Source: Scenedesmus sp. PABB004
Taxonomy: Eukaryota
Direction of reading: 5' to 3'
DNA: 64,000 nucleotides
NCBI GenBank assembly: GCA_014905635.1
Contig: JABVCE010000003.1
Span: 310,001-374,000, forward strand
Below, one piece after another: positions 5,042-53,319 of the stretch. The notes under the pieces are model-generated. The model saw only the letters and a program-made list of their open reading frames with translations, ran no database searches and had not been told where the DNA came from. Each line of letters starts with the position of its first letter. Position 1 is the stretch's first letter. Position numbers and translations under genes: made by a program.

Positions 5042-5109
<68 letters not shown>

Positions 5110-6186: not shown

Positions 6187-6277
<91 letters not shown>
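6187..6277. repeat. (GT)n microsatellite in kinase 3' UTR
   Basis: Perfect GT dinucleotide run. Confidence 0.95.
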
Positions 6278-19003: not shown

Positions 19004-20172
19004 GGCCCGGGGCAGCGCATCAGCAGCAAACCGAAACGCAGCCGGGCGCCCTCCACGCGCCCCCGCCCCCGCCCGGCACCGCCCGGGGGCGGGGGGCGCG
19101 CTGTACTACTAGTCGCCGCGCGTGGCAGCGCCGCCGCGGCGGCGGCGACGCGGCGGTGCCCCGCGCGCGCCAACCGCTGCTCGCGTGCGGCGGCGGCGCG
19201 CGCGCGCTTGCGCGGCGGCTGCCGGCGATCCTCGCCGTCTGGGGTATTTGATCGCACTTGCGGCGGCGGGCGGGCCTGCTGCGCGCGGCGCGCGGGCTCG
19301 CATCGCAGGATTCATCGTTTTGGGGCGCGCGCGCGCGCGGGCGCGGCGGCGATACTATGCTGTTGCTGTAGTAGCACGGAGCTCGTGGCCCCCGCGCACG
19401 GCCTGACGCACGGCCTGACGACGGCAGCGACTGCACTCACGCTCCCCAGCGCGCGCGCGGGCACTTACTACGGTTGGGCTCCACACTGACGCTCTCACCT
19501 GTGGTGGTCGTCGACACCCTCGTTGCGCGGCGCCGTCCGGCGCGCGCCCCGGTCGCGTGGTGCGGCGCGGCGCCGGCGGCCGCCAGTGGTCGGGGGCTGG
19601 GGCGGACCGCGCGCGGCGCGGCGCGGCGCGGCGCGGCGCGGCGCGGCGCGGCGCGCGCTGCCGCGGCAGCCATGTGTTGCCCAGCGGCGCGCGCGCCGCG
19701 CGGCGCCCGCCGCCGGCGCGCGTGCCGTGCGCGGGGGCGTGGGGGGGGGGGTGTGGGCGCACGGGCCGCACACATGTGCTGCGACTGGGCCCGAACGCGG
19801 GGCTGCCGCAGTGCGGCCCCGCCCGCCGATCGGCTCCCCCCTGCACGCCTCGGGGCTCGCCACCCGCCACTCTATGCATCTGTGTTTCGTCGGCGGCGGT
19901 TGCCAGACCCCGACCGCGCGTTGACCGTCCGTTGCTTCGCTGGCTTGCTCCGCGCGCCCACGCGCAGGTGTGTGTGGCGCAGCCGCCGCGCACCGCCGGC
20001 TGTAACTCGATTACGCGATCACGCTGCAGCCTCGCCCTCGCCTATTGATACAAGCGCGACCCCGCCGCGACCGACGCCCCGCGACCGACGCGCGAGCCGC
20101 CGCGGCAGGCCGGGGCGCAGAGGGCGCCCGCCGCCTGCCGCCGCCGTGCCCGCCCGCCCGTGTCGCGCCGCG

Positions 20173-20760
20173 TCACGGGCGCTTGTCCCAGTCGGGGTGC
20201 GCCTGCTTGTACACTGCGAGCGCGTTGTCAAACACGCTGCTCATGTGCCGGGAGACCTTGGCGCACTCCTCGCACGCGCCGACCAGCGCCTGCGCCGCCG
20301 TGACCTCGCCTGCGCGCGGACCGCGCGCGAGCGGCGCGGGCGCGGGGGCGTGGCCGCGCGGCACCGGCGCGCGGGGCGCGCAGCGGCGCCTGGCCGCCGC
20401 CTGCAGCGCGCAGCAGAGGCGGCTGGCGCCATGCGCCCTCCAGCAGCCGCCGCCGCACCCGTGGTCTGCACGCGGATGTTCACCACGTCCTCGGTGGGGT
20501 GGGGGATGCTGTAACCGCAGAACGTGACCTGCGGGCTGCGCGGCGGCGCGGCGGCGGCCGCGCGCGCGTCGGCAGCGGCGGCGGCGGCGGCGCGGCGGCG
20601 GCTGGCGCGCGGCGGCCGGCGCGCGCGGCGGCGCACACTTTTTGTTCAGGAAGAAGCGCAGCGCGTTGGCCAGCGTGTGGTCCTCCTCCACCACCGCAAA
20701 GGTGGTGCCGGTGTAGCGCTCCTCGGCGCCGCCGCCTGCGCCGTCTGCCGCTGCCGCCAT
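20173..20760 (-). CDS. RPAC2: RNA polymerase I/III shared subunit AC19 (RPAC2/POLR1D; 3 exons)
   Basis: [46 protein letters not shown]. Confidence 0.9.
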   Translation of the reverse strand: [195 protein letters not shown]

Positions 20761-21197
20761 GCCGCGCCGCGGCCGCCGGCGCGCTGGCGCTGGCGCTGGC
20801 GCGAGGGGCTGAGGGACTGGGGATTGGGGCCGTGCGGGCGGCGGCGTGGGGGCGGCCGGGCGGCCGCGCGCGACCAGGGTCTCGCTCAACCCGCCCGCCG
20901 GTCGCGGCGCGCGGCCGCAGCGCCCCTGCCGCCCACGATCGCCGCCCGCCGCACACGTGAGCAGGCTCCCCGCCCACCGCGCGCCTTTCAACCGCTGCCG
21001 GCTCCTGGCGCGGCCCGCCCCCCGCTCCCCGCGCCGTCCGCGCACCGCTCGCGCTCCCGCGTCCCCATGGCCCGCCCGCCGGCCAGGCGCGGCCGTCCCG
21101 CGTAGAGGCGCAGCCCGGGGGCGAGCAGTAGCGAGGGCCGGAGGGATCAGGCGCAGCAGCACGAGCCCCCGGCCAGCCCCGGGCCCCCCGGGGCCGC

Positions 21198-24100
21198 ATG
21201 GCGTTCTGGAAGGTGGCCGGCTTCTCGCAGCCGTCGCCCATAGAGGTGGGGGACGGCGGGGCGCGCCGACGGCGGCGCGGCGGCGCAGGCGCAGCAGCGG
21301 CGGCGGCGGCGCGCCGGCCGAGCGCGCGCGCCCGCGCGCCGCCGCAGTCCATCCTCGACAAGGAGGAGTACACGCTCGAGGAGCTGCTGGACGAGGATGA
21401 CATCATCCAGGAGTGCAAGTCGCTCAACGGGCGCCTGATCACGTTGTGAGCAGCGCGGCGGCGCGCCTGCGCGCGGGAGGCCCGCATGCATGCCCGCGGC
21501 GGCGCGCCCCGCGCGGCGCGCCGGCGCCGACCCCGCCTGTCCCGCCTCGCGCGTCGCAGCCTGCGCGAAAAGAAGACCGTGGAGCAGCTGCTGCGCTACC
21601 TCATCGAGCCCCAGAATGACGCCGACGACCCCAAGAAGCAGTACAGGTCCGCGGCGCCGCCGAGCGCCGCCGTGCGCGCCCCAGCGCCGCGCCCGGCAGT
21701 GCCGGCGGCGGCGGCGGCGCGCGGCCGCAGGCCTGGCGCCGGCCGCCGCGGGGGGCGCCCGCCGCCACGCCTGCGCCGCCCCGCTCCTGCCCCGCTCCCG
21801 CCCCCGCTCTCGCCCGTGCGCCGCTCTCACCCCTTGCCGCCCCTCTCGGCCGCCCGCCGCCGCGCCGCCGCGCCCGCGCGCAGGTACCCCTTCACGGCGT
21901 GCGAGGTGTTTTGCTGCGAGGTCGAGGCGGTGTTCAACACGCTGCTCGAGGACGAGGCGCTGCTCGCGCTGCTCTTCTCGCTGCTCGACGCGTCGCCGCC
22001 GCTGCCCTGCAAGGCGGCGGGCTACTTTGGGCGCGTCGTGGGGCAGCTGCTGCTGCGCAAGACCAACGAGATGATGCAGCACCTCTCCAACAACGACGAG
22101 ATCCTCGCCCGCCTCATCCGCCACGTCGACACGACGTCCATCGCCGACATCATCAAGCGCCTCGTCGGCGCGGACGACCACAGCAGCATGATCTTCCTGC
22201 CCATGCACACGCAGGCGCGCCGCGCGGCGGCTGCTGCAGCGCCGCGCCGCCGCGGCGGCCACGGCGGCGGCGCCGCCGCCGCCGCGTGCGCGCGGGCGCG
22301 GCGGCGCTCGCGGCGCTCGCGGCTCACGCGCGCCGCCGCGCCGCCGCCGCCGCAGTGGCTGGCCGAGACGCCGCTGGTGAGCATGCTGCTGGACCGGCTG
22401 GCGCCGGAGCACTCGGCGCACGTGCAGGCCAACGCGGCGGACATCCTCACCGCGATCGCGCACACGCAGCCCTCGGCGCTCGCGAGCCAGCTCATGCAGC
22501 AGCCCTGCATCGCGGCGCTCTTCAGCCGCGCGCTGGAGCCGGGCAGCCAGGTGCTCGTGACGGCGCTGGACGTGTGCGCCGCGCTGCTGGAGCCGCGGCG
22601 CGCGCAGCAGGAGTCGCTCGCGGAGGGCGGCTCGCCGCGCAGCGGCGGCGCGGGCCCCCACCCCGAGGCGGTCGCCAGCATGCTCGCCTACCTGCCCGCG
22701 CTGCTGGACGCGCTGCGCTCGCCCGGCGACCCGGGCGCGCTGCAGGAGACGCCGTACGGCGTGCTCGCGCCGCCGCTCGGCCGCGCGCGGCTGCGCATCG
22801 TGGAGCTGCTCGCCGCGCTGCTGCGCGTCGGCGACGACGGCGTCGACGGCGCGCTCATCGGCGCGCGGGCGCTGCCGCTGGTGCAGGAGCTGTTTGCGGC
22901 GTACCCGTTCAACAACCTGCTGCACCACCAGATGTACGCGCTGCTCGCGGCGGCGCTGCGCCGCGGCAGCGCGCCGATGGTGGCCCACATCTTTGGCGAG
23001 TGCGGCCTCGTCGGCTGGCTCGCGGGCCTGCCGGCCGAGGTCTCGCCGCGGCCGCGGCCGGGCTTCGAGGCCAAGGGCCCGCTGCGCGCGGGCTACCTCG
23101 GCCACGTCACGCGCATCGGGCAGGCGCTGCAGGAGGCCGCGGGCAGCCAGCAGGAGGTCGCAGACGCGCTGCGCGACTGCGCCGACTGGGCGGGCTTTGT
23201 GGAGCAGCAGCTCGCGCCGCGCCTGGAGGTCGAGGACGTCACGCACTGGCAGTGCGGGCGGCCCGTCAACACCGAGGGCGGCGAGCTGGACAGCGACGGC
23301 GACTTCCAGGTGCGCGGCGGCGGCCCGCGCGCGCCCGCGCCCCGCGCGCGCCCCAGCTGCGCGCGGCGCCGATGCCCTGCGCCGCGCCGCCGCGCCGCCG
23401 GGCGTCGCGCCGCAGAACGACATGGACGCGCTGGAGCAGATCCAGGGCATGCCGCCGGGCATGTACCACCGCTACGGCGTGCTGGACGACATCGACGACG
23501 ACGACGACGAGCCCGGCGAGCCCGGGCCCGACGCGTTTGGCAGCGCGCCGCCCGGCGCCGCCACCGGCGCGGGCGGCGCGGGCGACTACAACGCCGACAT
23601 GCTTGTCGCGGGCATGGCGGGGCTCGGCGTGAGCGACGGGCCCGACGGCGACGGCGCCGCCGGCGCCGGCGCCGAGCCCGGCGCCGAGGCGGGCGCCGAG
23701 GGCGGCGCCGGCGGGGCGGGCATCGGCAACTGGAGCCTGCTCGCCCACCCAGGTGCGCGCTGGCGGCGCGCCGCGCCCGCCGCCCGGCGACGTGCAGCGC
23801 TGTTGGGTTGCCGCGCCCGCCCGTGCGCGGCCAACTTGCAATGCGCTGCCAGAGCACCGGCGGCAAGATCTTTTGCTCCCTGCAGGCTCTTGTGCTGCAG
23901 GGAGTTCTTTCCCCTTGCCACATGCGCGCCCGCGCGGGCCCCCGCGCAGCGCCGCGGCGCGCCCGCGCCGCCGCGCTCACGCCCGCGCCGCCGCGTGCGC
24001 GCGTCGCCCGCGCCGCCGCGCCCAGGCGCGAGCTCCTCCGCCGTCGACATCCCCGGCGAGCGCTCGATGGAGGACGACGCCGTGCTGCTGGCGGACGACG

Positions 24101-24630
24101 AGGAGATGGGCGCGCTGAGCGCCGCCACGATGCAGGGCGGCAGCCCGCCGCCCGGCCGCGCCGCCGGCGGTGAGGCGGGCGGGCAGGCGGCGTCGCCGAT
24201 CGACGACATGGTCATGGTGGAGGAGCCCGGCGACGTGCTCAGCTCCTCGCCCGCCGAGGAGGCCTCCCCCGCGGCGCCGCAGCCGGGCGCGGCGCGCGAG
24301 GCGCCCGCGGGCGGCGCTGCTGACGCGGCGCCGCACGGCGGCGCGGAGCCGGCCGCGCCGCCGCCAGCGGGCGGCGGGGCGGGGCCGTCGGCCAACCCCT
24401 TCTCGCCCGGCGGCGGCAGCGAACCGTGCGCGCCTGCAGCGGCAGGCGCGGACGGCGGCGCGCCCCCGCCCGCCGCACCGGCGCCGGCGGCGGCGGCAGC
24501 GGCGGCGGCGGCGGCGGCGGTCGAGGCGCCGGCAGCGGCCGGCGCCGGCGACGGCTGCGGCAGCAGCGACGGCAAGCAGCAGTGGCAGGTCGCCGCGTCG
24601 CACCCGGTGGAGGTGTCCGATGAGACGTGA
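21198..24630 (+). CDS. SIT4-associated (SAPS) protein / PP6 regulatory subunit (7 exons)
   Basis: MAFWK...SPIESILDKEEYTLEELLDEDDIIQECK, YPFTACEVFCCE, PPLGRARLRIVE, YPFNNLLH, RAGYLGHVTRI. GC donor at 22215. Confidence 0.9.
23793..23925 (+). ncRNA. Intronic box H/ACA snoRNA
   Basis: Hairpin 1 (GCAGCGC/GCGCTGC base, GTTG-CCGCGC/GCGCGG-CAAC top), H box AGAGCA at 23851-23856, hairpin 2 (GGCAAG/CTTGCC base, CTCCCTGCAG/CTGCAGGGAG top), ACA at 23920-23922. Lies in SAPS intron 23753-24025. Confidence 0.85.
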
Positions 24631-24794
24631 GCCGTGCCCCCGCCGGGCCCCACATATTGTACGGTGAGCACTCCCCGTAGATTGCGTGTGTGCGTTTCAC
24701 CCGCCCGGCAGCTCGCGAGCGGCTGGGCGGGTTGTGAGCGGCGGCGCCGCGCGGCGCGCCCGCGGTCGCCCTCCGCGGCGCGCTGGGCGTGCGC

Positions 24795-24799
24795 TGTAA
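24795..24799 (+). terminator. UGUAA poly(A) signal of SAPS gene
   Basis: TGTAA 165 nt after the stop. Confidence 0.55.
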
Positions 24800-25105
24800 T
24801 TCGGCCCCCGCGCGCGCGCTCGGCGTCGTCGCCCGCCACCAGCACTGACCGATCAACATCCGCACGGCGCGGCAGCCGCGACAGGCGCGGTCAAACGCGT
24901 TGCCCCCCGCCCGCCCGGCTGCCAGCTTGCCGCGGACCTCGCCCGCGAGCGCCCTGCATCTGTCGCATCTCGTTCGAACCGCTGTCGCGCGCAGGGCAGC
25001 GCTGCGCAGGGGGAGGCAGCGACCGGCCGCGCAGCAGCAGATGGCGGCGCCCCGCGCGCCGTGCCGGGTGCCGAAGCGCCTCCGCAGCCGGCTCCAGGCT
25101 GCGTG

Positions 25106-28100
25106 ATGGCGCTCGAGACAGACCCGATGGACGCTGGCGCCCAGCTGGCCGCGGATGGCCGCGTGCAGCACCTCGCGGGCCTGGCGTCCACCTTCCTGGC
25201 CGTGGGCCCGTCCGCCCTGGCCGCCCTGCTGCGCCAGCAGGCAGCCCAACAGCGCCTTCAGGCCTTTCTGGACGGCAAGGGTGCGCCGGGTCGCGAGCGG
25301 GGGGCGCCGCCGCTGTGCGCTGCTCGCGCTGCTCACGCGCCGTGCGGCGCCGCAGCCGCCTCCGCGCTGCTGATCTGCCTGGAGGCACGGGGGGAAGAGG
25401 CTGAGGAGGCTGGGCAGCCGCCGGCCAGGTGCGCTGGCCGCGCGCGCGGCGACGCGGCGCGGCGCGGCGCGGGCGGCGGCCGTTGACGCGCCGCGCTGCG
25501 CGCGCCGCCACAGCCCGGGCAGCGAGCAGCAGGCGGAAGCGGCGCCCGTCGACGCGGCTGGAGCGCCATCGCGACCGTCCACCAGCGCCGCGGACGGTGC
25601 GCGCGGCCGCCGACGCCAGCGGCAGCTTTCCGCGCGCGCCCGCGCGCGCGGGCCGCGCCTCACGCGCCGCGCTGCTGCGAGCGCCGCAGGCGCAGTGGAG
25701 CAGGAGGCCGCGGCGCAGGAGCTGGGCGAGCAGCAGGCGCTGCCGCAGCAAGAGGAGGGCGCCTCGCGCCCCGCCACCGCTGGCCAGCCGCAGCAGGCGG
25801 CTGCAGCAGGCGGCGCCAGCTCTGCTGAGCAGCAGCTGCCAGGCCCGGGCCAGCCGCTGGACGGCCCGGCGGCGGGCGGCCAGCAGCCGCCGCTGCCGGA
25901 GCAGCAGCAGCAGGAGCAGCAGGGGCTGGAGCAGCAGCTGGGACCGGGGCCGCAGCAGTCAGAGGGGGCGCAGCAGCCGGAGCAGCAGCAAGAGCAGCAG
26001 CCGGAGCAGCCGTGCGGGCTGCAGCTGTTCCTGGGGCACGTGCCCGCGCAGTTTGCGCACTGCAGGCGAGGCGCCGCCGCGCCCCGCGAGCTGCCGGCGC
26101 CGGCCGCGGCTGCCGCGCGCGCCAACCGGCCGCGCCGCCGCGCTGTGCTGCTCGCAGGACGTTCTACTGCATCAACTCGCGCGAGGGCCCGCTGCCGCAC
26201 GAGGGCCTGTCCGAGGTGCTGGACTGCGGCCTGCTCACGCTGGCGCCGTCGCTGAGCTCGCTGGAGCAGGTGAGGGAGGGGGGGAGGCTCCAGGGCGCGC
26301 GGGATGCAGCCGGGCGCGGCGCGCCCCGCGCGCGCGCCGACGCGCCGCCCGCCGCCGCGGCTGCTGGCGCTTCTGCGCAGGTGCTGTCGGAGGTCTTCCT
26401 GCCGCTGCTGGTGCAGCAGGTCGGCACGGCCGACCCCGCGGCGGTCGGCGCCGGCGGCGCTGGCGCGGCCGGTGGGGGCCGCGCGCGCGAGCTGCTGGGC
26501 GGCATGCAGAAGTACTTGGCCACCATACAGCAGGCGGCGCAGCAGCTGACCGGGGACGTGGCGCTGCCGATGCCGGCGGTCCCGCCGGGCGCGGCGGCGC
26601 GCGACCCCGACGCGCTGCACGCGCTCGAGGAGGCGGTCGCGGGCTGGTCGGCGACGCTGTCCGACGTGCTGCAGCGCGAAAGCGAGAAGCGCCCGGGCGG
26701 CAAGGGCCCGCTCGCGGAGGTCGACTTTTGGCGCGCGCGCAGCGCGGCGCTGTCGGGCCTCGCGGAGCAGCTGTCGGGCCGCGCCGCGAGCGACGTGCTC
26801 GCGGCGCTCGAGGCCGGCAGCGACGACCGCGCCCTCATCGCCGCGATCCGCGCCCAGGCGGCGGAGCTGGGCAAGCTCGCGCACGAGGTGGGGCGGAGAC
26901 GGGCGCGCGCGGGCGCGGGGGAAGGGGGTCGGTCCACAGCGCCACGCATGCGCCGCGCCGCGCCGCGCCGCGCCGCGCGCGCGCCGCGCCGCACGCCGCG
27001 CCCACGCCGCCGCGCCGCCGCCTCGGCGTGCAGGCGCGTGACAACGTCAAGTTCCTGACCACGCTGGAGCGTCACTTCCGCAGCATCGCGACCGGGCCGC
27101 TGCCCGGCATCCTCGACACGCTGCCGCCGCTCATGAACGCGCTGCGCATGGTCTGGATCATCAGCCGCCACTACAGCGACGACGCGCGCATGGGCGCGCT
27201 CTTCGCGCGCGTCGCGTGCGAGCTGTGCGACCGCGTGGAGGGCGCGGTGCTGCCGCACGCGCTCTTCCGCGTGCCAGCGGCCGAGGCGGCCAAGCTGCTG
27301 CGCGTGAGCAAGGCGGTGCTGGAGAGCTGGCAGTCGACCTACATGCAGGCGCGCGGCGTGGGGCGCGGCACGGCGGCGGCGCGCGCTGTGTGTGCCGGGG
27401 CCGCCGCACGCCTCGCGGCGTGACCGACCGCGCTGGCCGGCGCGCCGCCGCCGCCGCCGCCGTGACCGCCGCGGCAGGTTCGCGAGAAGATCGAGGCCAA
27501 CGGGCGCGACGCGCGGTGGGAGTTCAGCAAGGCGAGCCTCTTTGCGCGCAGCAGCTACATGGCCGACGTGTGCGGGCAGCTCGCGGAGATGGTGGAGGTC
27601 GTGGACGACTTTTTCAAGTTCCTGGGCCCCGAGCTCAAGGCCGTCACCGGTGTGTGGGCTGGGCGCGGCACTGAGCGCGTCGCCGCACGCCGCACGCCGC
27701 GCGCCGGGCGCCGGGCGCCGAGCGCCGCGCGCCGAGGGCCGCGCGCCGCGCGCCGGGCGCCGCGCGTCGCGCACCGCCGGCCACAGGCGACGCCAAGGGC
27801 ATCGACGACGTGATTGAGGCGGTGGAGCTCATGGTCGAGCCGGTGGAGACGGCGCCCTTCTGCGTCTTTGACGCGGCCGCTGCGCCGCAGTGGCGCGAGC
27901 TGCGCCGCGCGTTTGCGGCGGACAACGACAAGGTCAAGGCCTCGACGCGCGAGCTCATCGACACGAGCTTCAGGAAGCTGCGCAGCGCGGAGGGCGCGTT
28001 CGAGCTGCTGCAGGTGCGGCGGCGCGGCGCGGCGGTGGGGCGGGGCGGGGCGGTGGGGCGGGGCAGGTGGGGGCGGCTGGCGGGCGCCCGGGTGCGCCGC

Positions 28101-32788: not shown

Positions 32789-32860
<72 letters not shown>

Positions 32861-35800
32861 TGGCCGAGCCGCGGCCAGGCGCGCGCACGGCCGGCCAACG
32901 CCCACCCGCGCGCCGCCGCCGCGCGCGCGCAGGCTGGACCAGCTGCGCGCGCTGTCGGAGCAGCTCGAGGTGTGCCAGAAGAGCCTGTCGGAGTACCTCG
33001 ACACCAAGCGCTGCGCCTTCCCCAGGCGCGCTGGGGCGCCGGGGCGCTGGGGCGCCGGGGCGCCTGCCGCCTGCCGGGGGACGGCACGTGCTGCGCGCGC
33101 GACGCGCGTGTGAGCCCCCTGTCGTGCCGCGGCGCCGCCGCGACAGGTTTTACTTCATCAGCGACGACGAGCTGCTCGCCATCCTGGGCACGTCCGACCC
33201 CACGAGCGTGCAGGAGCACATGCTCAAGCTCTTTGACAACTGCGCGGGTGAGCGGCGCGGCAGTGTCCGCGGCGCCGGCGGCGCGGCGCCAGGGGCGAGC
33301 CGGGCGCGTCGGGCGCGCGCGGACGCAGCCGGCCAAGACGGCCTGACCCGACCGCCGCCGCCGCCGCCGCGGCCGCCGCCGCGCGCGCAGCGCTCAAGTT
33401 TGGGCGCGGCGACAAGAGCATCACCGGCATGGTGTCGTCCGAGGGCGAGGCGTTTGCGTTCCGCAGCGTCGTGCCGGTCGAGGGCCCAGTGGAGGGCTGG
33501 ATGCGGGGCGTGGAGGCGGAGATGCGGCGCACGCTGGCGGCGGTCATGAAGGAGGGCGAGTGGATGATGACCCCGCACGGGCGGGGCCGGGGGGCGGGGG
33601 CTGGGCAGCAGCGGCACGCGGCGGGGCGCGGCGCCTGCGAGAGCGCCTGCCGGGCGCAGGCGCCGACCGCCGCTGCCGCGCGCGCCGCCGCCCGCGCGCC
33701 GCCACGCAGGCGTGTGGAGCTACGCGCACACGCCGCGCAGCCGCTGGATCGCCGACGTGCTCGGCATGGTCACGCTCGCGGGCAGCGCGGTGTGGTGGAC
33801 GTGGGAGACGGAGGACGCCTTCCGGCGCGTGCGCGAGGGCGACAAGCACGCGATGAAGGGCCTCGCGACCAAGCTCACCGACCAGCTCGCGCAGCTCACC
33901 GGCATGGTGCGCGCGCGGCCGCCGCGCTGTGTGGCCCCGCCGCGGGCGCGCTGCCACAGCGTCTGACCCGCGCGCCGGCGCGGCGGCGTGGCGCGCAGGT
34001 GCGGGGCGAGCTCGGGGCGGACGTGCGGCGCAAGGTCAACACGCTCATCATCACCGACGTGCACGCGCGCGACATCGTGCACGCGTTTGTGCGCGACAGC
34101 GTCATGGACGCGCGCGAGTTTGCGTGGGAGAGCCAGCTCCGCTTCTACTGGGACAAGCCCACGGTGCGGGCCCGCGGCGCGGCGCTGCAGTGCGGCCGGG
34201 CGGCCGCGCGGGGCGGCTCAAGTGCGCCGCGGCGCGCCGCGCACGACGACGCGCTGCCGCGCAGGATGACCTGGCCATCCGGCAGTGCAGCGGCGCGTTC
34301 CGGTACGGCTACGAGTTCATGGGCCAGAGCGGGCGCCTCGTCATCACCGCGCTCACCGACCGCTGCTACATGACGCTCACGACGGCGATGACCTTCCGCC
34401 TCGGCGGCGCGCCCGCGGGGCCCGCGGGCACGGGTGCGCGCCGCGGCGGCGGCGGCGCGCAGGGCGGGGGCCCCGCGCTGCGCTGCAGCCTGGCCGCGCG
34501 CCTGCCGGGGGCGGCAGCGGTGGGCGACGCGCTGAGCCTGCTGCGCCGCGGTGCAGGCAAGACGGAGACGGTGAAGGACCTCGCCAAGGCCATGGGCGTG
34601 CAGTGCGTGGTCTTCAACTGCGGCGAGGGGCTGGACTACAAGGCCATGGTGCGCCGCAGGGCTGGCGGGCGGGGAGCGCGCCTGCCCCGCGCCCCGCCCA
34701 CGCGCCGTGCTGTGCGCTGCACCGTGCAGGGCGGCATCTTCTCTGGCCTGGTGCAGTGCGGCGCGTGGGGGTGCTTTGACGAGTTCAACCGCATCGAGGC
34801 CGAGGTGCTCAGCGTGGTGTCGAGCCAGATCAAGCAGGTGCGGCGCGCGCTACCCCTGCCCCTGCCCGCGCGCGCGCCCTCGGCGGCGGCACCTCGCGGC
34901 GCCTGACGCCGTGGTCCGCCGTGCCGTGTCCGCGCCGCCGCCGCCCAGATCCAGGAGGCGCTGAAGAACGACCTCGCGCGCTTCCAGTTTGAGGGGCGCG
35001 AGATCCGGCTGGACCCGCGGTGCGGCATCTTCATCACCATGAACCCCGGCTACGCGGGTGCGGCGGCGCGGCGCGGGCCGCGGGGCGCGGGCGCTGGGGC
35101 GGGCGCTGCCGCGGCGCTGCCCGAGGCCGGGAGCCGCCGCCGGGGCCCGCGCCCGGCCGCCGCCGCTGACTCGCTGACCGCCGGCCGCCGGCCGCCGCGT
35201 TCTGCAGGGCGCACGGAGCTGCCGGACAACCTCAAGGCCCTGTTCCGCCCGGTGACGATGGTCGTGCCCGACATGGAGCAGATCTGCGAGATCATGCTCT
35301 TCAGCGAGGGCTTCGACTCGGCCAAGGTGTGGGAGACGGGGTCAGCACCCCTGCCGCGCCGCGCCGCGCCGCGCTGCGCGCCGCCGCCGGGCGCGCCGGC
35401 CGGCACACGGCACGCCGCGCCCGCGCCTCAGGTGCTGGCCAAGAAGATGACCGTGCTCTACAAGCTCGCCCGCGAGCAGCTGTCCAAGCAGCACCACTAC
35501 GTGAGCGCCAGCCGCGCGCCGGCGCCACGGCTGGCTGGCGCGGCCCCGGGGCCGGCGACGCGCAGGGCGCGCGCCCCACGCGCGCCACCGCACCGCCGCG
35601 CCGCCGCGCAGGACTTTGGGCTGCGCGCGCTGAAGAGCGTGCTGGTGATGGCGGGCGCGCTGAAGCGCGGCGCGCCGGGCATGAGCGAGGCGCTCGTGCT
35701 CATGCGCGCGCTGCGGGACAGCAACCTGCCCAAGTGTGTGTACGACGACGTCCCCCTCTTCCTCGGCCTCGTGGGAGACCTCTTCCCAGGTACACCACGT

Positions 35801-49866: not shown

Positions 49867-52495
49867 ATGATGGCCCTCCGCGCCACGCCGACGGCCGGCC
49901 GCGCGGCCGCGGCCGCGCCCTCGGTGCGCGACGGCTCGGAAGGGGTGGCTCCCCGCAGCGCGCGGCGCGCCCTGGGGCGCGGCCCGCGGGCCGCGGGGCG
50001 CTGCGCGATGGCAGCAGCAGCAGCCCCCGCGAGCGTTATGAGCGCAGCCCCGCCGCCCGGCCGCCAATTGGGGGCCCGCCCGCGTCCTGCACGCACGAGG
50101 CGGGCGGGCGCGGCCGGCGGGCGGGCGCGCGCGCCGCGGCGCGCGCCGGCAGCGGCGCGGCAGCAGCAGCGGCGGCGCCGGCGCTGCCGCCCCGCGGCGC
50201 GCCGCCTGCCGCGCGCCCTCGCTCGCCCACCGCTCGCCGCCGCCCCTCCCGCCGCTCCCGCCGCCGCGCAGGCGCCGCGCCTCGCGCCCGCGCCCGCGCC
50301 GCGCCGCGCGGCGCCGCGCGCGCCGGCGCCGCCGCGCGCCGCGCCCGACAAGAACGGCGCGTTTGACGGCCTCTCCATGGGCCCCATCAGCGTCGGCGCG
50401 TCGGCGGAGGCCAAGGACCGCGGCGGCGGGTCGGCCAAGCCGGTGGACCGCAGCAAGGGCCTGTGGACGCGGTGCGACAAGTGCGGCGTCATCCTCTACA
50501 TCAAGCACCTCAAGGAGCACCACCACATCTGCTTCGGCTGCAACTACCACCTCAAGATGTCCAGCCAGGAGCGCATCGACCACATGCTCGACGCCGGTGC
50601 GCGCCGCGCCGCCGCGCGCGCCGCGCCGCGCCGCCGCGCGGGGGCCTCTGCCGACCCTCACGCCGCCGCGCCGCCGCCGCCGCGCCGCCAGGCACGTGGC
50701 GCGCGCTGGACGAGACGCTGAGCCCGTGCGATCCGCTGGACTTTGTTGACATGAAGCCCTACCCCGACCGCGTGCGCGACAGCCAGGACAAGACCGGTGC
50801 GCGCGCCGCGCCGCGCTGCGCTGCGCCGCGCCGGCCGCGGCCGCACGTGCCTCTCCCACCCACCCACCCACCCACCCACCACACGCGCCGCGCCCCGGCA
50901 GGCATGAACGACGCGATCCGCACCGGCACGGGCCTGCTGCACGGCATCCCCGTCGCGCTGGCGGTGATGGAGTTTGGCTTCATGGGCGGCAGCATGGGCA
51001 GCGTGGTGGGCGAGAAGCTCACGCGGCTCATCGAGTACGCGACGCAGGAGGGCCTCACCCTGCTCGTCGTCTGCACCAGCGGCGGCGCGCGCATGCAGGC
51101 GCGTGCGCGCGCAGGGCTCGCACGCCGCGCCGCGCCGCGCCGCGCCGCGCGGGGGCGCCCGCGCGGGGGCTCGCATGCCCCTGCCGCGTGCGCCCTCACG
51201 CCGCCGCCGCTGCCGCCGCCGCGCCTGCGCCGCCCCTCCCTCCCTGCGCGCGCGCGCGCAGGAGGGCATCATGAGCCTGATGCAGATGGCCAAGATCAGC
51301 GGCGCGCTGCACGTGCACCAGAACGAGGCCAACCTGCTCTACATCTCAATCCTCACCAGCCCCACCACCGGCGGCGTGACCGCGAGCTTTGGCATGCTCG
51401 GCGACATCATCATCGCCGAGCCCCAGGCCATCATCGGCTTTGCCGGCCGCCGCGTCATCGAGCAGACGCTGCGCGAGGAGCTGCCCGACGACTTCCAGGC
51501 GCGGCGCGGCGCGGCGCGACGCGGCTGTGGCGGCGGCGGCGGCAGCGCGCGGCGCGCCCCGCCCTCCCCGCAGTCCCCGCGCGCCCGCCTGACCCGCCCT
51601 CCCGCCCTCTCGCGCCCCTCCCTGCCACGCCCTCCCTGCCTCCCTGCCTGCCCCCCCCCCACGCACACGCACACGCCCAGACCGCGGAGTACCTGCTGGA
51701 CAAGGGCCTGCTTGACCTGGTCGTGCCGCGCTCCTTCCTCAAGGGCGCGCTCTTCGAGATCATCGACTTCTACAAGGTGCGTGTGTGTGTGTGGGGGGGG
51801 GGCACCACGGCACCAAGCAGCAGGCACATCCACACACACACACACCCACACACCCACACACGCACACGTACGCATCTGCACGCGCGGCCCGGCCCTGCCC
51901 GGGCGTCTGCGCGCTGTGCGCTGAGTGCGCTGCGTGCTGAGCGCCACCGCGCCGCTGCGCCGCGCCGCCGCAGAACGCTCCGTACAAGCGGCGCGGCAAG
52001 ATTCCGTTTGGCGTGCAGCGCGGCACGTACGGGCTGACGTCGGAGGAGAAGATGCGGCGCCGCTGGCGGGAGTGGGCCGCCGCGGGCGGGCCCGCCAACG
52101 GCAGCGGCGCGCCCGCGCTCGCGGCGGCGGGCGGCGAGCCCAGCTACCAGGTGCGCGGGGGAGGCAGGGCCGCGCCCGGCGCGCGGCCGGCGCCACCGGC
52201 GCGCCCGCGCCCGGCTCACGCGCGCCGCCGCGCCGCGCGTCGCGTCGCGTCGCTGCAGGACCTGGTGTCGTCGTTCCAGAGCGTCTGCGCGTCTGCGGCG
52301 GAGCAGCTGGTCGGCGGCGAGCTGGACGTGAGCGAGCTGGTGGGCGAGCCGGCGGCGCTGGACGACGCGGTCGCGCTGAGCAAGGACAGCGTGATCGAGT
52401 GGATGGAGGTGCAGGCGGAGCTGCTCGCCAAGGAGCCGGCGCCGGAGTTTGTGTTCAGGGTCAAGGAGGCCACCTACTCGGGCCGCCAGGTCTGA
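49867..52495 (+). CDS. accD: Plastid acetyl-CoA carboxylase carboxyltransferase beta subunit, nuclear-encoded (7 exons; start 49867 or 50008)
   Basis: LWTRCDKC...ICFGC zinc finger, [51 protein letters not shown]; long Ala/Arg-rich transit peptide. GC donors at 51099 and 51499. Confidence 0.92.
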
Positions 52496-53319
52496 GACTG
52501 GGCGTGTCGGGCCCGCGGGCGCGCGCGGGCGGTCGGGGCGGCGGGCGGCGGGGCGGGGCGGCGGGCGGGCGGGCGGCGGGCTTGCACTGCAGCTGGGGCA
52601 GTGGCTCGTGCGGGGCAGCAGCAGCGGGGGGCCAGCGCCGGCGGCGGCGGCGGTGGCGCGTTGCCGCGCCCGGCGGCGGCTTGCGGGCGCGCGGGCTCCT
52701 GCCCGCCGCCCGCACGCGGCCCGCGCGCGCGGCTGCGCCCTTTTTTGAACAGCGGAGCTCCGTCCCGCCGGGCGCGGGAATGCGGTCGTGGCAGGGCGGG
52801 TGGCTCGTCGGGGCACGGCGCGGGCGGGTGCTGGCGGGCGGGCGGGTGTCCAGGGCCTGCGGCCATGGCGCGGCCATGGCCATGGCGCGGGCTGGCTGGC
52901 GGAGGGCAATTGAGCCGAGGTAACGCGAGCGACGGAGCGCGGCACGTCGCGAGATCACCACCCGTCGGCAGCGCCACCGCCGCCCAGCGTTCCGCAACCC
53001 GCCGGCGCCGACGCGCACAGCCTCCCACACGCGCCGCGCGCTTCTCACCAGCTGACACAGTGCATTCGCATTCATGCCGGACAGTGCACCGGCCGGCGCA
53101 CACGCCGCGCCGGCGCTCAATGCTCTACCTGGAGTCCTGGAACTGCCGCCTGACAAGGAAGTGAGAATGTTTGAGGCTGTGCAAGATGTGGGTGCTGGCT
53201 CAAGAATCATACAAAGCAATGGGCCGAGCCGGCCGCCGTGCGGCGTGGCGTCAGGCGACGCAGAGCGTTCGAATCGCCGGCCGACGACTGAGCGAGCGGC
53301 GACGTGCCTCCGCGTGCGC

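Follow-up and report, generated by a model that had tools for sequence, protein, structure and literature searches.

The best described counterparts of the locus presented here are the box H/ACA snoRNAs of Arabidopsis compiled by Chen and Wu 2009 (Table 3, PMC2685112). In that table they measure 132-171 nt and share a hairpin-hinge-hairpin-tail layout, and their pockets lie 13-16 nt upstream of box H/ACA and bind the target by at least 9 bp in total and at least 3 bp per arm. Here, we describe a candidate from Scenedesmus sp. PABB004 that falls into the same size class and follows the same layout and pocket rule. It was found in a 64-kb stretch of genomic DNA, which is called the window in its entirety below, and it resides on the sense strand of a SAPS-domain gene inside a GT..AG intron.

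The part of the host gene upstream of this intron matches the SAPS domain in Pfam (PF04499, E = 2.4e-40), which bears out the description of the host as a phosphatase regulator in the first-pass annotation. Four introns were delineated within 21450-24300 (273, 237, about 141 and about 105 nt), and the one hosting the candidate is, as had been proposed, the longest of them. The gene segments concerned are the following.

21450-23752, plus strand: upstream exons and introns of the host gene (part analysed), based on PF04499, exon frames from GC3 periodicity and SAPS clusters as atlas neighbours
23753-24025, plus strand: hosting intron of the SAPS-domain gene, 273 nt, with GT at 23753-23754 and AG at 24024-24025, based on splice-site contexts
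24026-24300, plus strand: downstream exon of the host gene, with GC3 of 0.97-1.00 and a metagenome contig fitting 24023-24115

The length of the putative intron is a multiple of three and it stays open in the exon frame, and the plus-strand frame 22561-24630 runs through the region free of stops, so that the stretch could also be read as the coding, low-complexity tail of the SAPS protein with no intron at all. We consider this hardly credible. Open frames are ubiquitous at 78% GC (59 stop-to-stop ORFs of at least 60 aa overlap 20000-27000), GC3 falls from 0.95-1.00 in the flanking exons to 0.68-0.70 across 23793-23925, and the borders carry GT and AG. Furthermore, the metagenome contig that fits the next exon (three differences, no gap) ceases to fit 3 nt upstream of the predicted acceptor junction, and its 63 upstream letters find no counterpart here. 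Given the GC3 drop and the GT..AG borders, the element at 23793-23925 is non-coding.

A complete hairpin-H box-hairpin-ACA arrangement of about 133 nt had been proposed for this element, and every part of it was recovered at its proposed place. The components are listed below in the order in which they occur.

23793-23925, plus strand: predicted box H/ACA snoRNA of about 132-133 nt with predicted ends, based on the fold (z = -3.75), the layout scanner (17+19 bp), a GC content of 0.647 and a contig fit over 23794-23935
23794-23849, plus strand: 5' hairpin, with lower stem 23794-23800/23843-23849 (GCAGCGC/GCGCUGC) from centroid structures
23806-23816 / 23825-23831 + 23833-23836, plus strand: upper stem of the 5' hairpin, with bulged C23832 and apical loop 23817-23824
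23801-23805, plus strand: 5' strand of the 5' pocket, UGUUG, from the centroid structure
23837-23842, plus strand: 3' strand of the 5' pocket, UGCAAU, from the centroid structure, with the pocket top 14 nt from the H box
23851-23856, plus strand: H box AGAGCA (ANANNA), 1 nt past the 5' hairpin
23862-23919, plus strand: 3' hairpin, with lower stem 23862-23867/23914-23919 (GGCAAG/CUUGCC), upper stem 23875-23885/23895-23905 and apical loop 23886-23894
23868-23874, plus strand: 5' strand of the 3' pocket, AUCUUUU, of which UCUUUU (23869-23874) pairs with LSU AAAAGA
23906-23913, plus strand: 3' strand of the 3' pocket, UCUUUCCC, which pairs with LSU GGGAAAGA and lies 14 nt from ACA
23920-23922, plus strand: ACA box, abutting the 3' lower stem, with the inferred 3' end 3 nt further at 23925

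The two hairpins are 56 nt (5') and 58 nt (3') long. In the centroid structures both pockets are 14 nt away from their box and thus within the range of 13-16 nt. For the 3' pocket a distance of 14-15 nt from ACA had been claimed, and this holds exactly, as its top is 14 nt away, or 15 nt when the closing G23875-U23905 wobble is not counted as paired. Such an architecture with these distances is canonical for box H/ACA.

The 133-nt element folds with a minimum free energy of -66.8 kcal/mol (z = -3.75), a stability reached by 0 of 200 shuffles. The same holds for the 3' hairpin alone (z = -3.76; 0 of 200), whose minimum free energy structure is the pocket hairpin and accounts for 35% of the ensemble, and the 5' hairpin alone reaches z = -2.63 with 5 of 200 shuffles as stable. 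The hairpins fold equally well on both strands and the H and ACA boxes are present on the plus strand only; since folding favours neither strand, it is the boxes that determine the strand assignment. When both strands of the window were searched with a custom H/ACA layout scanner, two hits were obtained, namely 23793-23925 with 17+19 stem base pairs and a weak one on the minus strand (10+14 bp). Dinucleotide shuffling of the 64-kb window (100 replicates) yielded a mean of 3.03 minimal layouts per shuffle, and the arrangement as such is thus no rarity in DNA of 78% GC. Layouts with at least 36 stem base pairs occurred in 2 of the 100 shuffles, both strands being counted. With 64.7% GC the element forms an island in its intron, whereas the flanks reach 94.7% and 94%. 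It is single-copy in the window, and blastn revealed neither a repeat nor a paralogue of it within these 64 kb, the other matches being short, GC-rich and of low complexity.

Comparative evidence is provided by a single freshwater metagenome contig of 205 nt (run X1, depth 5.2), which fits 23794-23935 with six substitutions and two gaps, and whose other letters (45+16) have no counterpart in the surrounding intron. Among its differences a TC insertion behind 23819 falls into the 5' apical loop and A23833G converts the pair U23809-A into U-G. Four of the six substitutions and one of the two gaps are without assigned position. The two placed differences are structure-neutral. The freshwater metagenome run, which contains a fraction of 0.05 of the words sampled from the window, is of DNA type and has no bearing on expression. 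A pattern of pockets and boxes, applied to metagenome contigs in search of further homologues, gave 22 matches, and none of the 22 has the full H/ACA layout; 10 pass a weak single-hairpin test and 7 are repeats of two sequences. As the pattern allowed no variation in the spacing, in the strands of the pocket or in one pair of the lower stem, diverged homologues would escape it. One of the 22 matches lies, as seen by eye, within an apparent bacterial membrane-protein ORF.

Rfam at gathering thresholds yields no match in the whole window, and with E values up to 10 there are five noise matches in 23500-24200, no H/ACA family being among them. Neither tRNA nor tmRNA was detected in 23000-24600. 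On either strand the 3' hairpin attracts Rfam hits to a miRNA precursor family, but these stay at noise level, with 14.1-14.5 bits as compared to a gathering score of 70.

Two alternatives deny the element its role as a guide RNA. According to the first one a chance pair of hairpins and chance box-like motifs came together in a very GC-rich intron and give rise to no RNA product. GC-rich DNA forms stems easily, as seen from the shuffled windows, the candidate was picked from a scan of many windows, and the missing Rfam match also speaks for this explanation. It leaves jointly unexplained, however, the GC island, the contig fit limited to the element, the structure-neutral differences and the 14-bp in-register complementarity to rRNA described below, and we regard it as improbable. 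The second alternative, in which the intron carries a conserved structure that serves a different purpose (for example as a regulator of SAPS splicing or retention or as a hairpin precursor of a small RNA), appears highly improbable to us. The perfect stem of 10-11 bp in the 3' hairpin and the miRNA-family hits mentioned would suit such an element, and an island of conservation does not by itself specify a function. Yet miRNA precursors of the plant type have longer stems, and an element of this kind would need neither ANANNA and ACA exactly at hinge and tail, nor two 14-nt pockets, nor complementarity to rRNA. The stretch 23793-23925 very likely represents a genuine box H/ACA snoRNA.

The question of its target leads to the 3' pocket. 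It pairs with LSU GGGAAAGA-UG-AAAAGA through 8+6 Watson-Crick base pairs flanking an unpaired U-G, the rRNA used being foreign eukaryotic rRNA and not the organism's own. This is the pairing around U-G that the first-pass annotation had suggested. The LSU motif named there turned out to be real. The predicted target segment, GGGAAAGAUGAAAAGA, equals the Rfam LSU_rRNA_eukarya consensus at model positions 355-374, with the target uridine at position 365, and is unpaired in the consensus structure. This uridine corresponds to U366 of Arabidopsis 25S, U367 of tobacco and U372 of human 28S rRNA. The pairing lies within the bipartite rule of at least 9 bp in total and at least 3 bp per arm.

All six eukaryotic LSU loci verified with Rfam allow the contiguous 14-bp pairing (8+6). 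They were retrieved with the target motif itself, so that the match in them is circular and only proves the motif to be real eukaryotic LSU sequence; the next-best site on these sequences has at most 11 bp. In prokaryote genome contigs the motif occurs in at least 98 loci, mostly bacterial 23S with the same 20-mer, and a eukaryote-type downstream context was found in 11 of the matches listed. Five of those 11 were scored with Rfam together with one locus of variant context (L025), and all six are eukaryotic LSU. No match of the motif occurs in viral contigs. Pockets made of the same letters in shuffled order reach at least 14 bp in 25 of 3000 trials, and among uniform random pockets 1 of 3000 does.

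The pseudouridine lists of Arabidopsis and tobacco do not contain the equivalent uridine (PMC10281867, PMC6793436), human 28S U372 is printed as plain U in a modification map (PMC6182160), and yeast 25S has no modification before position 643 (PMC5062969). Arabidopsis U366, tobacco U367 and human U372 are thus not listed as modified in these sources. The neighbourhood does carry modifications in the same sources, namely Am369 and Um378 of tobacco 25S, Um/pseudouridine 377 of Arabidopsis 25S and Am389/Am391 of human 28S (PMC10281867, PMC6793436, PMC6182160). In land plants, the conserved LSU domain I segment carries modifications of the snoRNA type at two positions downstream of the predicted uridine, at distances of 2 nt and 11 nt. 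A full-text search for the target motif returned no paper dealing with rRNA modification in its title or abstract. A lineage-specific LSU target is plausible.

In yeast, human, Arabidopsis and tobacco this uridine is either unmodified or missing from the lists, which would also agree with a genuine H/ACA RNA that leaves its LSU complementarity unused and is an orphan or serves another rRNA site, an snRNA or an mRNA. The pocket is moreover of low complexity (U/C), as reflected by the trials with pockets of the same composition, and the target search was confined to rRNA, namely SSU beyond position 1267 and LSU up to model position 2671. Against this stands a 14-bp duplex made up entirely of Watson-Crick pairs in exact register, with an unpaired U-N where the pocket ends at its top, at a distance of 14 nt from ACA, and with the next-best sites on the rRNA searched at 11 bp or below. 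We therefore regard an unused LSU complementarity as unlikely.

The CAB box of Cajal-body scaRNAs is UGAG in the apical loop. Inspection by eye detected UGAG in neither of the apical loops, CCGCCCGU and GCUCUUGUG, and this argues against an H/ACA-type scaRNA as a variant of the unused LSU complementarity.

On the whole, it is likely that the element is an intron-encoded H/ACA snoRNA of about 132 nt whose 3' pocket guides pseudouridylation of LSU at Rfam position 365.

For the 5' pocket the first-pass annotation had left the target unassigned, and this did not change with the partial rRNA compared. Three pocket definitions applied to rRNA outside SSU model positions 1-1267 and LSU beyond 2671 gave a best match of 8 bp, which is at chance level and falls short of the bipartite rule. 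Worked by hand, its pairing with the site of pseudouridine 1486 in Arabidopsis 18S is weak (4+5 bp including two G-U). Sequencing revealed this pseudouridine, which is classed as novel, i.e. outside the sites predicted from known guides. The 18S stretch around the equivalent of pseudouridine 1486 differs in the two eukaryotic SSU loci compared. Chlorophyte 18S may offer a better match to the 5' pocket at this site.

If the preferred reading of an intronic guide RNA is correct, an RNA of about 132 nt would be transcribed within the pre-mRNA of the SAPS gene. By analogy with intronic H/ACA RNAs elsewhere, it would be freed from the spliced intron and trimmed by exonucleases to the part protected by Cbf5/dyskerin, Nop10, Nhp2 and Gar1, and then move, as such snoRNAs do in other systems, to the nucleolus. 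There, the 3' pocket would pair through UCUUUCCC with the 5' half of the target, GGGAAAGA, and through UCUUUU with its 3' half, AAAAGA. U-G would stay free where the upper stem begins, 14 nt from ACA, and so have the geometry that places the uridine in the active site of Cbf5; a pseudouridine at LSU Rfam model position 365 is predicted to result. For the candidate RNA we infer its expression, its processing, the binding of proteins and the modification.

A more far-reaching interpretation combines a lineage-specific pseudouridine at Rfam 365, within a universally conserved single-stranded segment of LSU domain I and 2 nt from a position 2'-O-methylated in tobacco, with a 5' pocket that may guide the 18S equivalent of Arabidopsis pseudouridine 1486. 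This combination is possible, and we put it forward tentatively, without quite leaning towards it. If the prediction for the 3' pocket is true, the map of rRNA modifications in a eukaryote with about 78% GC would gain a guide RNA and a new site, and the new site would be situated in a core LSU segment at a uridine left unmodified in the well-mapped model ribosomes. For annotation the lesson would be that functional small RNAs can stand out as islands of low GC in introns of about 95% GC. Knowledge about the H/ACA mechanism would remain unchanged, and there is nothing unusual about an intronic snoRNA whose host gene is unrelated to the ribosome.

Arabidopsis examples that are intronic like the candidate are snoR103-2, which has 132 nt and lies in At4g30680, and snoR140, which has 142 nt and lies in At5g08180 (Chen and Wu 2009, Table 3, PMC2685112); some of the snoRNAs listed there reside, as the candidate does, in introns of protein-coding genes. 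The candidate differs from this set in matching no Rfam family and in showing no detectable sequence relationship to its members, and none of the targets given in that table is the equivalent of 25S U366. It is a single gene in its intron and not part of a cluster. Judging by its title, the study of Chen et al. 2008, Genetics 179:21, reportedly deals with intron-organised C/D and H/ACA snoRNAs of the GC-rich green alga Chlamydomonas reinhardtii. Titles and abstracts on green-algal H/ACA RNAs and pseudouridine suggest no guide for the LSU site, and the Chlamydomonas snoRNA catalogue may describe a homologue; it is most likely the place where a described relative of the Scenedesmus candidate is to be expected.

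The 133-nt element at positions 23793-23925 (+ strand) of the window displays, as judged from its sequence, every feature expected of a putative box H/ACA snoRNA. The first-pass annotation had described a complete hairpin-H box-hairpin-ACA layout, and all of its parts are found at their coordinates:

23794-23849, + strand: 5' hairpin; lower stem GCAGCGC/GCGCUGC, upper stem GC-rich with one C bulged
23851-23856, + strand: H box AGAGCA, which fits the consensus ANANNA
23862-23919, + strand: 3' hairpin; lower stem GGCAAG/CUUGCC, upper stem of 10 Watson-Crick pairs and a closing G-U
23920-23922, + strand: ACA box, adjoining the 3' end of the lower stem of the 3' hairpin

The internal loops of the two hairpins are the pockets that would pair with target rRNA. 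AUCUUUU and UCUUUCCC form the two sides of the 3' pocket, whose top is separated from ACA by 14 nt, in agreement with the distance proposed earlier; according to the centroid structure, the 5' pocket (UGUUG/UGCAAU) is likewise 14 nt away from the H box. The whole RNA folds with -66.8 kcal/mol (z = -3.75), a stability reached by none of 200 shuffles. For the 3' hairpin alone the minimum-energy fold is the pocket structure (z = -3.76); the 5' hairpin alone is less exceptional (z = -2.63, 5 of 200 shuffles as stable). Folding of the hairpins is equally good on both strands, but only the + strand, sense with respect to the host gene, has the H and ACA boxes. A snoRNA processed from an intron needs its boxes on the sense strand of its host.

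This host is recognized by a SAPS domain (PF04499, E = 2.4e-40) in the frame 21450-24170. Among protein-atlas clusters the closest to it consist of SAPS proteins, most often from Streptophyta, a lead rather than a finding that the organism may belong to the green lineage. The borders CAG/GT at 23752/23753 and CAG/G at 24025/24026 define an intron of 273 nt around the element, indeed the longest SAPS intron among those delineated within 21450-24300, the other three having 237, about 141 and about 105 nt. The gene's second intron (22215-22355, + strand) has an apparent GC start (ACGCAG/GCGCGCC) with no GT nearby and is possibly a GC-AG intron. Just downstream of the SAPS gene the open frame 25405-27420 (+ strand) contains dynein heavy chain N-terminal region 1 (PF08385, E = 7.5e-25), so the organism probably has flagella or cilia. 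An exon at 50443-50595 (+ strand), perhaps continuing to about 51776, shows an acetyl-CoA carboxylase zinc-ribbon (PF17848, 28.3 bits, cut-off 24.5), a domain characteristic of AccD, the beta subunit of the carboxyltransferase. The gene to which this exon belongs is GC-rich, has introns and is of nuclear type; most plants encode accD in the plastid.

With a GC content of 75-81% throughout the window stems are cheap. A layout scanner was applied that needs ACA, a pocket hairpin with its upper stem ending 13-16 nt upstream, ANANNA at most 6 nt upstream of this 3' hairpin and then a second pocket hairpin with equal spacing. In 100 dinucleotide-preserving shuffles of the window such a minimal layout appeared 3.03 times per shuffle, so that the bare layout means little; 2 of the 100 shuffles contained a match with 36 stem pairs or more. 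Both strands of the real window gave two matches, among which the element has 17+19 stem pairs. The second one (35238-35386, - strand, H-like box AGAGCA, ACA, 10+14 stem pairs) is weak and probably a chance match, since its stem content lies within the shuffled range (best shuffled match of at least 24 bp in 90 of 100 shuffles). Taken alone the architecture of the element is suggestive and not conclusive, and the case is carried by other lines of evidence.

One of these is composition. The GC content is 64.7% in the element versus 94.7% and 94% in the intron on either side, and its minimum over 40 nt is among the lowest 0.3% of the window. Elsewhere in the window, the eleven lowest-GC islands of 60 nt that were inspected are mostly microsatellites or coding exons, along with a few unannotated non-coding stretches. 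Long dinucleotide microsatellites (CT)n, (GT)n and (GA)n at about 5046-5105, 6187-6277 and 32804-32857 represent several of the window's lowest-GC islands; the lowest non-repeat island (53111-53233, minimum 0.45 over 60 nt) has no obvious coding character and no Rfam match. The stretch of the element is open in the exon frame, which at such a GC content is true of nearly any sequence; its reading as coding sequence is countered by the lost codon periodicity, third-position GC being 0.95-1.00 in coding exons of the SAPS gene and 0.68-0.70 in the same phase over the element. Within the window blastn found only the element itself and short GC-rich low-complexity matches, thus it is not a dispersed repeat.

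Contigs of one public freshwater metagenome run, in which a small fraction of the sequence words from 23300-24500 occurs, were compared at 80% likeness, and most matches were GC-rich noise. A contig of 205 nt (depth 5.2) fits 23794-23935 with 6 differing letters and 2 gaps, its other 45 + 16 letters having no fit to the window; on its left side this match starts exactly where the 5' lower stem does. A separate contig of 156 nt fits 24023-24115 with 3 differing letters and no gap, the 63 letters upstream being left unmatched. Identity in the sample is about 94-95% for the copy of the element, a single low-depth contig, and about 97% for that of the next exon, with the adjoining intron not alignable and the two contigs not shown to share one locus. 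The placed differences of the 205-nt contig are a TC insertion behind 23819, located in the loop that caps the 5' hairpin, and A23833G, by which the pair U23809-A23833 becomes U-G; four substitutions and one gap are without position.

The LSU rRNA motif named in the first-pass annotation is genuine. It equals the Rfam eukaryotic LSU consensus, GUGAggGAAAGaUGAAAAGaAC at model positions 353-374, with the predicted target U at 365 in upper case and in a region marked unpaired, and it occurs in all six LSU loci scored with Rfam. Viral contigs gave no match to the motif; the prokaryote genome collection contains it in at least 98 loci. The 20-mer is not eukaryote-specific, as most of the loci listed (L023-L120, contigs of that collection) are bacterial 23S with the identical 20-mer followed by bacterial-type context, and 11 of those listed have a eukaryote-type downstream context. 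Five of these 11 and L025, with a variant downstream context, were sent to Rfam and all score as LSU_rRNA_eukarya (659-1779 bits), in some cases with 5.8S and SSU next to the LSU. L025, L037, L042, L058, L069 and L077 are short contigs assigned to metagenome-assembled genomes of bacteria; Rfam recognizes eukaryotic LSU, 5.8S and SSU rRNA in them, and they look like rDNA of eukaryotes that was wrongly binned with prokaryotes.

In the target geometry the 3' strand of the pocket binds the 5' half of the target and the 5' strand binds the target's 3' half, leaving U-N unpaired at the pocket top. In the eukaryotic LSU loci tested the proposed pairing holds, with 8+6 = 14 contiguous Watson-Crick pairs around the unpaired U-N; the next-best sites in the same sequences reach at most 11. 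Because these loci were fetched with the motif, presence of the site in all six is circular; they establish that the motif is a true eukaryotic LSU sequence and, over about 7.7 kb of rDNA (LSU model positions 1-2671, 5.8S, SSU 1268-1831 and spacers), the top-ranking site. On the same rDNA at least 14 pairs were obtained with 25 of 3000 letter-shuffled pockets, a conservative value because many shuffles of the low-complexity strands recreate the same words, and with 1 of 3000 uniform random pockets.

For the 5' pocket three definitions gave at most 8 pairs on partial rRNA (LSU 1-2671, 5.8S, SSU 1268-1831), the level of random pockets. By hand, 4+5 pairs are possible with Arabidopsis 18S pseudouridine 1486; two of them are G-U, which breaks the at-most-one-G-U rule given in PMC2685112, and the surrounding 18S stretch differs in both eukaryotic SSU loci compared. 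The equivalent of 1486 may be regarded as a lead only. The Arabidopsis H/ACA table of that paper, in its accessible portion, has no guide for the LSU 365-equivalent site, no Rfam family matches the element, and in a metagenome pattern scan with pocket strands and ACA fixed none of the 22 matches had the H/ACA layout.

In the excerpts available, published maps do not list the target uridine as modified. The Arabidopsis Pseudo-seq 25S list has no entry at U366, the nearest pseudouridine being 377 (PMC6793436, supplementary table 7), and the tobacco 80S cryo-EM table gives the neighbours Am369 and Um378 and no pseudouridine at 367 (PMC10281867, supplementary table 6). The yeast mass-spectrometric table leaves 25S unmodified from the 5' end to position 643 (PMC5062969, supplementary file 2), and the human 28S map prints GGGAAAGUUGAAAAGAAC in plain letters with 389 and 391 as first marked residues (PMC6182160, supplement). 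A guide acting as predicted would thus make this a lineage-specific site. This somewhat lowers confidence in the target and is no contradiction: lineage-specific guide sites are common, as the 26 'novel' 25S sites gained in Arabidopsis illustrate (PMC6793436).

The compositional island, the conserved island and the in-register rRNA complementarity together support the H/ACA reading. We consider it very probable that the element is a real H/ACA RNA; that it is one and has the LSU site as its most likely function is, as a joint statement, still probable. The element belongs to a well-known kind of RNA.
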